DNA of 64,000 bases from the NCBI GenBank assembly GCA_021805985.1, contig JAJZDN010000008.1, positions 26,319-90,318 on the forward strand, read 5' to 3'. The notes beneath the pieces were generated by a model, which worked only from the letters and a program-made list of their open reading frames with translations, ran no database searches and was not told the DNA's origin. This DNA is from Planctomycetota bacterium (GTDB taxonomy: Bacteria > Planctomycetota > Phycisphaerae > WQYP01). Each line of letters begins with the position of its first letter. Positions within the stretch are counted from its first letter, which is position 1. The position numbers and the translations under genes are program-made. Of the stretch, positions 61,383 to 64,000 are shown piece by piece.

Positions 61383-61455
61383 CCGAGGGTAGCTCAGCGG
61401 TTAGAGCCGGGGACTCATAATCCCTTGGTCGTGGGTTCGATCCCCACCCCTCGGA
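61383..61455 (+). tRNA. tRNA-Met (anticodon CAT; elongator type, could also be tRNA-Ile2/lysidine)
   Basis: Hand-folded cloverleaf: acceptor ccgaggg/ccctcgg, D-arm gctc-agcggttag-gagc, anticodon loop ctCATaa, T-arm gtggg-ttcgatc-cccac, discriminator A. The anticodon stem lacks the three G-C pairs of an initiator tRNA. Confidence 0.85.
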
Positions 61456-62707
61456 ATTTTTCATTACCAGCGCCAACGCCATGCAAATCGCGACTTTTCT
61501 CGCTATCCATGCGGGTATGCTCCTTGTCGGTCAAGCCCATTTGCGGCGCATCGGAAGGAACAGAAACGCACGAAAAAGCACCTGTTTTGGTTGCGCCTTT
61601 GGTTGCGCGTGAGATGATTTCTACATCAGGCGTTCCGACCGCCCGTACCGCCTGCCCTTGATACTGAACTTCCCAGCGCGGCAACGCTTCAATCGCTTCT
61701 GCTGTCGGCAGTAGGCTAGCATCTGTGTACGTGCGTGTGGTCAGACGAATATCACTATGCCGCATGACCTGCATGGCAGTCTGCACGGATACCCCGGCCC
61801 GGCCAAGGTTGGTAGCCAGCGTATGTCGCAAGCAATGAAAGTCTACGATACGGCCAGCCCTGTCTTTCTCGGCGATCTTCGCGTTGGCCAGATCAACCTT
61901 AAATGTTTCCATATCCGGCACCTCGAATACGGCCTCGCCAGATTGATCCAGCGCGCGTAACGCAGTGGCCAAATCGTCCCGTAGCCAGGTGATCGCACGC
62001 TGCCCGTTCTTGGTGGTGGAAGCACGAACATCCAGATAAGGCTTGGGGCTGTCAAGATGTACATCCGTCCAGCGTAGCTGTTCCAGTTCCGCCCGCCGTA
62101 GGCCGGTCAGCAGTGCGGCCATGTAGACCGTCTTACGCGGGTTTGGCGACAGGTTCAGCAAGCGTTCAACTTCGCTGTCAGCCAAGGCCCGGCGTTGCCG
62201 TCGAATATCACCATTGACCTTCACAGTAGCCAGATTCTGAAACGGGTCTAACGGCAGACGGCCATTGCGAACACACCAGCGGCAGAATTGCCGGATGATC
62301 TGCTGATAGTCGTTACGCGTCTTTGGCGCAGCCTTGGCCATATCGCCGGTGTCACGGAATTTGAGAAATGATGTGGTAGTAACATCTGGCAAGCGATTCC
62401 AGCCACAGACGTTGAGTACTTTCTTCAGCCGAAGTTCCGTCCTGTGGGTGTTCTCTGGGTCATTACCCTTTGCTATAAGTTCCGCCAGGTAATCCGCAAC
62501 ATGCTGCGTCAAAGGGGAAACCTTATGCTCGGCATAGGCATCCACCAAGCCGACCTCACCGCGATCAATCTGGGCTTGGTGCTGCCGAGCTTTTTCGTCG
62601 GTCGCCCGCTTGTCACTGAAGCCCTTAAATGTTCGCCACTGATTAGGGCCCAGGCGAACCTTGTAACACCAAAAGTTCTCGTTAGGCCTGCGCTTGAAAA
62701 TGGTCAT
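61415..62707 (-). mobile_element. int: Tyrosine-type site-specific integrase (phage integrase family); its 3' end overlaps the tRNA-Met 3' half
   Basis: TGGAGG RBS. The catalytic region has ...HCLRHTLAT...MRHSDIRLTTRTY (R...HxxR...Y). The last roughly 14 codons run antisense through the tRNA, which is typical of tRNA-targeting integrative elements. Confidence 0.85.
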
Positions 62708-62802
62708 AATATTTGTGCCTCCACTGGTTCATTAATCATCATAGCATTTGGCCTGCGGCCGGTCTAATAAGTTTGACACGACTTCAACCTAAAATTTCAC
62801 TA

Positions 62803-63033
62803 TCAATTCCGATGAATGGCGAACTCGCGGAGGTTTTCAATAAACGTCTCCAAGTCCACTTCGGCAATGCGTGTGCTACGCAAACCGATATGCACCGCTG
62901 GCAGTTGCCCTTGGGATATCAGTTGCCACGTCTTGCGCGTACTGATGCCCAATCGTTCTGCAACGGCGGGAATCGTCAACAATCGGGCCTGGGGCTTTAC
63001 TTCACTGACTGTCTTAATCATTTGAATCTCCAA
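62803..63033 (-). CDS. AlpA-family HTH excisionase / prophage transcriptional regulator
   Basis: LLTIPAVAERLGISTRKTWQLISQGQLPAVHIGLRSTRIAEVDLETFI matches the AlpA/Xis MerR-like HTH. Immediately upstream of int. Confidence 0.7.
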   Translation of the reverse strand: MEIQMIKTVSEVKPQARLLTIPAVAERLGISTRKTWQLISQGQLPAVHIGLRSTRIAEVDLETFIENLREFAIHRN

Positions 63034-63181
63034 AATTCACAACCTAACATCATACGAACATAGTATGTGTATATTACGGATAAAGTCAATGGTATTATTA
63101 AAGACAAGTCGCTTTTAGCCGTTTTGCCACCTTATATACCGTTATATGCCGCTTGCCCGCCACCGGATGAACATGTAGACT

Positions 63182-63439
63182 TTGCTCGTTATGGCCAAAC
63201 GAAACAAACCAGTAAAGACCGCCAAGAGCGCCGACAGGCCCCTGACCGTTCAGAGAACCTATCGCTTCAATACGGAACTCTTTGAATCCTTTGAGGAGGA
63301 TTGTGCTCGGCATCTGGCCAATCCCAAGCTGGTGATGGAGGCACTTATTCTGCACTGGCTGGAAGGTGACGCCAAGGCGCGCGGAGCCATCGCGATGCGG
63401 CACCGCCAACGGTTTGGGTTGTCATCCCAGGACGAGTAA
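63182..63439 (+). CDS. Small ribbon-helix-helix (CopG/Arc-like) protein inside the integrative element
   Basis: The RTYRFNTELFESFEEDCARHLANPKLVMEALILHWLE pattern (beta-strand, helix, helix). Divergent from the alpA-like gene across an AT-rich region. Confidence 0.4.
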   Translation: MLVMAKRNKPVKTAKSADRPLTVQRTYRFNTELFESFEEDCARHLANPKLVMEALILHWLEGDAKARGAIAMRHRQRFGLSSQDE

Positions 63440-64000
63440 TTCCCACATCGGCATCGGCCCCCACCATTACCAAGACGCCGCGCCGCGGCAACGTTCCAAC
63501 CGGCAGCATCAATCGTGTAATTACCGTGCTTTGCCCTCGGCTTGCGCCGGGCAACCGCCGCGCCCTCGCTGTGTTCCACTTCGCTCCGTCACGCCGGATT
63601 GCTCCGGCTCCAGCCGGTGCAAAGCACTGGCCGAAAGACACTATCAGACCGCCCGCCTTGGCTTCCCGCCACCTGACGTGGAAGGCCAAGGTGGGCTATG
63701 TTGTTGGCACAACCGAATGGACGAGTGGGAGGGCTTTGAAAGCTCCCGCCACTGGCATTGGTGAGATGTAAACAACTGGCCGGCGCGATGTTCGGAGGCG
63801 GTTACGAATCGCCGGTGGAGGTTCTCCGGTCCCCTGACGTCCACGGTTTCCGGAGAAGTAAATGCCAGGCCGCCGAGGGGCGACTTCACCCTGGCTGACT
63901 TGGTTCGGTGGCTGGTTTTGCCACGCCCCGTGACACCGACAAGTTGGCGTTCCGCACCGTTGCCCGCCGTCCCGTGTCGGCAGATGGCCACGCCACCAAT

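Follow-up and report, generated by a model that had tools for sequence, protein, structure and literature searches.

Lambda-type integrases that target tRNA genes and are accompanied by an excisionase are textbook material. In mycobacteriophages BPs, Brujita, and those of cluster P, the phage attachment site (attP) overlaps a tRNA 3' end inside the repressor gene, and integration removes a degradation tag. In Rhizobium phage 16-3, attP overlaps the integrase gene (int). Mobile elements are also linked to large structured non-coding RNAs, namely GOLLD, ROOL, HEARO, and OLE. In the RAP44-like phages of Riemerella, attP occupies nucleotides 25-43 of int, and integration detaches no more than a 43-bp piece (PMC12169736). 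A 2021 review describes integrases with the recombination site in their own gene as exclusive to archaea (PMC8371274). Here, we analyzed a bacterial locus that can be compared with all of these systems, a tyrosine integrase gene that reads into a tRNA-Met gene near the right end of a 64,000-nucleotide stretch of a Planctomycetota genome (assembly GCA_021805985.1, contig JAJZDN010000008.1, positions 26,319 to 90,318 of the forward strand; the whole stretch is referred to as the window). We consider it highly probable that this region is the left attachment junction (attL) of a genomic island in tRNA-Met, and that its integrase belongs to a family carrying attP inside the 3' coding part of int.

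The tRNA-Met junction

The only tRNA called within the window, by both ARAGORN and Rfam (RF00005, 67 bits), was a tRNA-Met(CAT) on the forward strand at 61383-61455. It has a C1-G72 pair and is therefore not an initiator tRNA, and the CCA end is not encoded in the gene. On the opposite strand, an open reading frame (ORF) of 430 aa at 61415-62707 matched integrases in Pfam and PHROG and was found to enter the tRNA by 41 nt. It stops at a TGA (complement of 61415-61417) that overlaps the anticodon (61416-61418). A preliminary description of this DNA, made from the letters alone, had reported this tRNA and an opposite-strand tyrosine integrase with its stop inside it, and had read the place as attL of an integrated element. 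Both gene calls were confirmed. We also support the attL reading, that is, the tRNA-proximal junction of an integrated element, on the basis of relatives with both junctions and of unintegrated viral forms (described below), which indicate that an integrase entering a tRNA means that the element brings the tRNA 3' end.

The 3' part of this tRNA, the integration target, is thus predicted to be element-derived, and the 430-aa ORF would be the integrated form of the integrase, C-terminally truncated and chimeric. By analogy with 13 relatives, the identity block shared by the attachment (att) sites, and hence the probable crossover region, is predicted at 61428-61455, from the T-loop/T-stem to the tRNA 3' end. 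The block may reach some nucleotides to the right of 61455, and the exact position of the crossover within it is placed by the same analogy. The tRNA-Met 3' segment of 25-30 nt reads GTGGGTTCGATCCCCACCCCTCGGA.

The identical integrase was present on seven public contigs, including DAHWCP010000007.1 (GCA_027323105.1), in which the record position equals 26658 plus the window position. DNA beyond the window was analyzed in locus L001, which extends 8.7 kb past the window end.

A family of integrases with the attachment site inside the gene

Nearly all of the 120 homologues listed (37-90% identity) were 425-460 aa long, and their C-termini were found to be reverse-strand translations of the tRNA T-arm, in all three phases (GIEPTT, GLEPRT, GFEPTT, RIRTY, and ARTRNL). 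A scan of 185,579 species genomes uncovered at least 558 confirmed relatives. Among the matches listed, these were mostly from Planctomycetota and Verrucomicrobiota, with some from Kiritimatiellales and Lentisphaerae, and the closest genome hits of the window integrase were metagenome-assembled genomes of Planctomycetota. Judging by the names given to homologues of neighboring proteins, the host genome is probably one of Phycisphaerae. Locus-level counts were taken from the 80 genome loci that were kept. The int ORF terminated inside or beyond an opposite-strand tRNA in 54 of these 80 loci, which involved 14 tRNA isotypes and overlaps of 26-90 nt.

A few longer homologues read through the tRNA-like stretch and end in the motif dL..vi.aWp.Lp..lraAvLaiVr. 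One of them, P0030, is encoded on a 23-kb viral contig (L008), in which int is flanked by tail genes on one side and by phage genes including HNH on the other. This contig has no tRNA, and a 30-nt copy of a tRNA 3' end is located within the int ORF. Two contigs from IMG/VR (L009 and L023) likewise contain an uninterrupted long gene and a T-arm-like palindrome but no tRNA. At 13 integrated loci, we found an exact repeat of the tRNA 3' end (24-61 nt) located 2.8-10.3 kb upstream of int. The repeat spans from a few nucleotides past the tRNA 3' end to the T-loop/T-stem, and its inner boundary was in every case 24-28 nt into the tRNA, counted from the tRNA 3' end. A short ORF piece carrying the conserved C-terminal motif continues in frame behind it, and splicing the attL part to this part at the far junction (attR) produced an ORF of 478-533 aa ending in the motif in 13 out of 13 cases. 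Paired examples include a 3.8 kb element in L140 and one in the isolate Pontiella sulfatireligans F21 (L109). These in-frame repairs, combined with the long gene in three viral contigs lacking a tRNA, reveal that at the level of the family attP is located inside int and that integration splits off the C-terminus. The split-integrase design is well supported for the family, and the tRNA-derived C-terminus of the window integrase suggests that it, too, is self-splitting. Searching deposited phage genomes with the long integrase gave remote hits only, and we found no description of the family in the literature searched, whose coverage was incomplete.

Two relatives differed in layout. In L139 (2999-3476) and L151 (11012-11257), the C-terminal motif was found only 59-81 residues past the catalytic tyrosine, and in L139 a tRNA-Leu is located ~215 nt downstream of the int stop, without overlap. 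From these two relatives, the C-terminal module appears to belong to the protein. The layout is possibly ancestral, from before the att site moved into the reading frame, and the module may predate that move of the att site into the linker.

Domain structure and selection on the integrase

To the window integrase we could assign the catalytic residues R204, K233, H291, R294, H317, and Y327, which were invariant in 48 sequences (alignment A1). These residues, and a fold matching lambda Int, IntI, and Tn1549 Int, place the protein among the tyrosine recombinases. In an AlphaFold2 model of the long form, the N-, core-binding, and catalytic domains all had a predicted local distance difference test (pLDDT) score above 90, and the N-domain was beta-rich (residues 7-43). 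Residues 370-458, which contain the att copy, were disordered (pLDDT 32-39), and the chain ended in two helices (pLDDT 74-84). Because attP is inside the int frame, a long disordered linker is part of the family enzyme, and the conserved two-helix C-terminus is lost on integration. Foldseek ranked full-length lambda Int first, followed by Brujita Int, IntI, and Tn1549 Int. Given the predicted arm-binding N-domain, the match to lambda Int, and the adjacent HTH_17 gene, the window integrase may be of the lambda-Int-like heterobivalent type; no arm-type sites were identified.

We estimated selection against a 90%-identical relative in a related strain (L152, described below). The ratio of nonsynonymous to synonymous substitution (dN/dS) was 0.11 for the int body and 0.06 for the neighboring excisionase gene (xis). 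Such strong purifying selection indicates that int and xis have been kept functional. In the int tail (window 61456-61700, int codons 346-416), dN/dS was 0.38 and dS was 0.195, compared with a dS of 0.51 in the body, with only 20 differences available. The low tail dS together with the higher dN/dS would fit sites that act at the DNA level in the tail, such as att arm sites.

The same tail invites another explanation of the overlap with the tRNA, namely that it is an accident of annotation, the real protein ending soon after the catalytic domain and the rest being merely stop-free. The Pfam Phage_integrase match (PF00589, E 6e-17) is limited to aa 175-330 of 430, leaving about 100 codons past the catalytic Tyr327, and the tail, for which disorder is predicted, is less constrained as protein, as given above. 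However, among 62 relatives with tails of at least 75 codons, these tails stay open while the two other frames average 3.0 and 4.4 stops, which indicates that the open frame is maintained by selection, and at all 13 paired loci, as well as in the 3 viral contigs, the tail continues in frame into the conserved motif. We consider such an accident hardly credible.

For the self-splitting integrase, we propose the following course of events. In the free element, int would encode about 480-530 aa, consisting of a catalytic body, a ~90-aa disordered linker containing the copy of the tRNA 3' end, and the conserved C-terminal two-helix module. On integration, the body would stay beside the tRNA, here as a protein of 430 aa whose last 4-5 residues (T-K-G-L) and stop would be host-encoded, from the tRNA anticodon arm. 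The last 45-70 int codons would relocate to the far end of the element at attR, and the tRNA would be restored by the element's tRNA-like segment. The integrated enzyme, retaining all catalytic residues, would excise the element together with the HTH_17 excisionase and rebuild the full gene. The detached module would most likely serve as a built-in switch that sets direction, activity, or stability differently in the free and in the integrated form.

The far junction and the present state of the island

The preliminary description had proposed that attR would be found downstream as a direct repeat of the tRNA 3' end. No such repeat was detected in either the window or the 8.7 kb that follow it by exact matching, matching with 3 mismatches, a repeat finder, or short-word BLAST. 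The distal int piece was not found in the window, L001, L152, L153, or other loci using a regular expression or a hidden Markov model built from 15 examples, which gave no hit below E 0.6.

A sister island was identified in the same genome at tRNA-Gln(ctg), on DAHWCP010000035.1 (L154) and complete in L153 4039-19300 (ENA k141_549063). Its integrase belongs to the same family, is 515 aa long and 49% identical to that of the window, and reads through the whole tRNA-Gln. The xis gene, the small regulator, the GC-rich tract, and the RHS cargo described below are 74-89% identical between the two islands. At its right end, the sister island has a 432-aa gene followed by the chromosomal FolD gene.

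A related strain carries a 90%-identical integrase at the same tRNA-Met, beside the same rhomboid gene (L152). Only xis, int, the tRNA, and the flank are common to the window and L152 (88-92% nucleotide identity), and the sequences beyond xis show no relationship. Just upstream of xis, where the homology to the window ends, L152 contains a near-perfect inverted repeat of ~150 nt per arm (~2830-3200), which may reflect a genuine hairpin or a fold-back artefact of the assembly. No empty tRNA-Met site was found, as every exact copy of the flanking rhomboid gene carries the integrase.

Several of these observations weigh against an island bounded by attL and attR and held by a self-splitting integrase. 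Neither attR nor the distal int piece was present for the window element in the window or the 8.7 kb beyond, and the sister island at tRNA-Gln has neither over its complete right flank. The L152 element has diverged to nearly the same degree (88%) as the chromosomal flank (92%), as would also be expected of a stub of long residence. No unintegrated form of the window integrase or its nearest relatives (54-90% identity) was found in the databases searched. Finally, the function of the C-terminal module is one that we infer. With no attR detected in the 8.7 kb beyond the window or in the sister island, present-day excision of the window copy is no more than possible, and the island itself may be immobilised.

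An alternative to which we assign a substantial chance, only somewhat short of even, is that the island integrated as proposed and later lost attR and the distal int piece, by recombination between multi-copy backbone modules or by the activity of insertion sequences (IS), leaving int and xis at a dead junction or serving other copies in trans. Such a grounded remnant would account for the lack of attR in the 8.7 kb beyond the window and for its lack in the sister island across the complete right flank, up to FolD. It would also agree with an IS630 element inserted in the backbone, with a backbone that is mosaic and multi-copy and in which assemblies break, and with int and xis being at the same site in L152 with unrelated DNA behind them. 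However, a dead stub would not long keep selection as strong as the dN/dS values of 0.11 for int and 0.06 for xis. Moreover, by analogy with the sister island, the end of the element would be located ~16 kb from the tRNA, beyond the 8.7 kb searched. An island whose integrase was split at integration, and whose far end may be located beyond the DNA searched, is the reading that we prefer.

The excisionase gene and the divergent control region

The gene next to int, at 62803-63021 on the reverse strand, encodes a 72-aa protein with an HTH_17 winged helix (PF12728, E 2e-11) and is a candidate excisionase, or recombination directionality factor. It also matched PHROG_66, labeled 'excisionase and transcriptional regulator'. 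An AlpA-type excisionase had been described at this place. We found that a small gene of the MerR-type HTH_17 excisionase family is indeed present, but the AlpA family proper (PF05930) was not among the hits; the HTH_17 excisionase family is close to AlpA but distinct from the AlpA Pfam family.

Between xis and a small regulator gene, there is a divergent control region (63022-63190), which we examined by its sequence and by comparison of 11 copies. It is AT-richer and contains a conserved AAAGTCAA(T/C) block. The direct repeats noted here earlier are real and consist of a tandem 10-nt TTATATACCG/TTATATGCCG at 63132-63151. In the copies compared, these repeats were found to vary, related copies having a single copy or different repeats. 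Just 3' of the repeats, CTTGCC (63152-63157) and TAGACT (63176-63181) form a -35/-10-like pair, a putative promoter judging by the sequence.

The small regulator and its neighbors

The first gene of what we refer to as the island backbone, at 63191-63439 on the forward strand, encodes a small conserved DNA-binding-type protein of 82 aa. It had been described as a ribbon-helix-helix (RHH) protein. The gene is real, having 140 homologue clusters, being carried by 100 or more ENA contigs, and differing from its paralogue mainly in one codon phase, while the assignment to RHH is a matter of sequence pattern. The core, QRTYRF-x-T-x-LF-x-x-FE-x-DCA-x-HL-x-NPK-x-V-x-EALILHWL, is nearly invariant and would fit an RHH-like strand-helix-helix pattern, with QRTYRF as the strand followed by the helices. 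The protein had no match in Pfam or PHROG.

The neighbors of the regulator varied among its homologues. Distant homologues (64-74% identity) are the first gene behind int and xis in conjugative elements with a CI/LexA-like repressor and Trb/VirB genes. Four such loci from Planctomycetota (L073, L166, L167, and L172) contain the CI/LexA-like repressor, an S26 peptidase, and TrbC/VirB3/VirB4/TrbL/VirB8/CagX/TrbI. Type IV secretion or relaxase genes are present in the islands of L073, L167, and L172, and L172 additionally carries AbiE, a pair of Vsr and DNA methylase, and other defence-like genes. Closer homologues (at least 77% identity) adjoin tyrosine integrases, a large serine recombinase, or a DUF1580 protein, and the cargo beside them is diverse, comprising RHS, transglutaminase-like, or WYL and Fic genes. 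In L162 (2301-4541), the backbone of regulator and tract adjoins a large serine recombinase, and in L158 (1-365) it adjoins an unrelated gene (MDIEANKSF...YRRGDHYILQWWDP). These different neighbors indicate that the recombinase module is exchangeable.

A conserved GC-rich non-coding tract

Behind the regulator gene, the GC content rises from 0.45-0.53 to 0.63 from about 63400, as had been remarked for the DNA from about 63440 on. The earlier statement that this tract contains no convincing ORFs also proved right, since the ORFs there are typical of those arising by chance in GC-rich DNA. The last 561 nt of the window (63440-64000) are the beginning of a non-coding GC-rich module of about 1.27-1.43 kb that is conserved in at least 10 loci. 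In every closer copy the tract begins directly after the regulator stop codon, and copies are 80-93% identical over 1.23-1.43 kb. The start is fixed and the end falls within 1.23-1.43 kb despite differing neighbors (alignments A2 and A3).

Mismatches between paralogues are spread evenly over three phases in the tract, and 1-nt indels occur, whereas mismatches in xis and the regulator concentrate in one codon phase. The tract is therefore not coding. Its divergence over the first 780 columns (K 0.10-0.17) is below the dS of the adjacent gene (0.30-0.95), which shows that it is constrained. A consensus fold contained 291 pairs, of which 20 had changes on both sides, whereas shuffles gave 10.6±2.3 (0 of 500) and slid controls gave 2-5; this comparison draws on only about 10 closely related tract copies. 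As the opposite strand was equally good (20 double-change pairs) and the counts of G-U versus A-C pairs were indecisive, the fold does not fix the transcribed strand. Folding of single sequences gave z-scores of -1.8 and -2.8. In Rfam, the tract had no match, with only chance-level hits (E above 0.4). Pattern scans for the tract found none in IMG/VR and, in JGI metagenomes, only one contig that was already known.

We weighed whether the tract could instead be decayed coding sequence, in which case it would consist of functionless pseudogenes left from an earlier module for conjugation or regulation. Behind more distant relatives of the regulator, a CI/LexA-like repressor and type IV secretion genes are found in place of the tract, and GC-rich ORFs of 100-240 aa are present. 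However, compared with synonymous sites in the adjacent gene, the tract diverges 2-5 times more slowly; it is also free of codon-phase bias and tolerates 1-nt indels. Searches with tblastn and blastn found no similarity to the genes of the conjugative relatives, and decay would not predict the same start in at least 10 loci with an end within 1.23-1.43 kb, or an excess of compensatory pair changes. We regard decay as improbable. The conservation, the non-coding pattern, the constraint, and the covariation indicate that the tract is a functional non-coding module. It could equally be a large structured RNA or a DNA element, for example a transfer origin served by the adjacent RHH-like protein.

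Near the 3' end of the tract, we observed three copies of a 9-nt motif, GGCATCCCG twice and then its complement CGGGATGCC, at A3 columns 1267-1275, 1312-1320, and 1330-1338 (window-equivalent about 65.9-66.0 kb). In L159 and L162, all three copies have changed jointly to GGAACCCAG/TGGGTTC. The joint change suggests two mutually exclusive hairpins that may act like a switch.

The tract also differed in history from its neighbors. L005 (1-360, compared with window 63440-63675) has an identical integrase, and its tract is only 94% identical. L158 and L176 are separated by a distance of 0.035 in the tract and by a dS of 0.83 in the adjacent gene, and many contigs end in the tract region. Such mosaicism suggests that copies recombine often or that assemblies are chimeric.

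Taken as a whole, the locus lends itself to two linked readings that we put forward tentatively, as a possibility distinctly short of even. In the first, the integrase family would be a large bacterial counterpart of the self-splitting integrases of archaea, in which loss of the two-helix module from an otherwise intact enzyme acts as a DNA-encoded switch between an integration form and an excision form. In the second, the tract would be a structured RNA of a new kind, ~1.3 kb long, or else an element acting as single-strand DNA, which forms with the RHH-like protein the constant backbone of Phycisphaerae islands that swap recombinases and cargo.

Cargo beyond the window

As anticipated, the element runs past the window end. 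The order of genes beyond it is an IS630-family element, a 147-aa membrane protein, a BACON_2 protein, a 247-aa protein, a DUF6734-like protein, and a 2126-aa RHS-repeat protein. The IS630-family element (1199 bp, with a TA duplication; DDE_3, E 8e-28) is located at window-equivalent 64194-65392 (L001 7316-8514). It comprises an HTH part, an apparent frame break, and a DDE_3 part, and its ends (TACTCT.../...AGAGTA) are flanked by TA. It splits the non-coding tract at window-equivalent 64193/64194, boundaries that are fixed by the paralogue in L153, which is continuous across the insertion site.

The cargo had been left as possibly that of a prophage or an integrative and conjugative element. 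Neither the 8.7 kb beyond the window nor the sister island was found to contain genes for phage structure, packaging, or lysis, or genes for type IV secretion or a relaxase. The cargo is an RHS-toxin cassette, and is neither a phage nor a conjugation system. A tRNA-integrated island carrying an RHS toxin is, as such, ordinary. Other members of the integrase family do sit in phages.

Comparison with known systems

The tract resembles GOLLD, ROOL, HEARO, and OLE in being long, ORF-free, conserved, located on mobile islands, and marked by an excess of compensatory changes, but unlike these it matches no Rfam family. It is a candidate for a large RNA or cis element of a new kind, carried by mobile DNA in a phylum that has received little study.

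The integrase shares with the lambda type its arm-binding, core-binding, and catalytic domains, all catalytic residues, and an adjacent winged-helix excisionase. As for the lambda-type integrases that target tRNA genes, the target is the 3' part of the tRNA, and a direct repeat restores the tRNA. Unlike in the lambda type, attP is located within the int reading frame, about 60-100 codons past the catalytic tyrosine. This placement explains an oddity of annotation, namely integrases ending in GIEPTT or RIRTY. It also provides a practical rule for locating both ends of an island, which is to seek the orphan C-terminal piece of int.

The integration-dependent immunity of the mycobacteriophages is similar in that attP is in a phage gene and integration alters the C-terminus of the product, and hence its behavior. 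Brujita Int is also the second-best structural match to the window family, a similarity of fold only. However, the gene that is split here is the integrase and not a repressor, and the detached piece is a conserved helical module in which no degradation tag was identified. In the Riemerella phages, integration into a tRNA likewise alters the coding sequence of the integrase. In contrast to the single cases of Riemerella and 16-3, the present design is a family trait over hundreds of loci, with a conserved detachable module. A switch of directionality or stability written into the att site becomes directly testable in such a family.

The SSV-type integrases (SSV1, pTN3, and pT26-2) also have the site in the integrase gene, which is therefore divided on integration and made whole again on excision. 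In the present family, however, the cut is behind a complete catalytic domain, and the integrated copy keeps the catalytic residues and is under purifying selection. As the catalytic residues are all in the attL part and the dN/dS is 0.11, the family is not 'suicidal'. Further differences are the bacterial hosts, the arm-binding domain, and the excisionase; the comparison is one of design. Set against the statement that integrases of this kind are exclusive to archaea, the results reveal a related, non-suicidal self-splitting design in bacteria, distributed over hundreds of loci and 14 tRNA isotypes.

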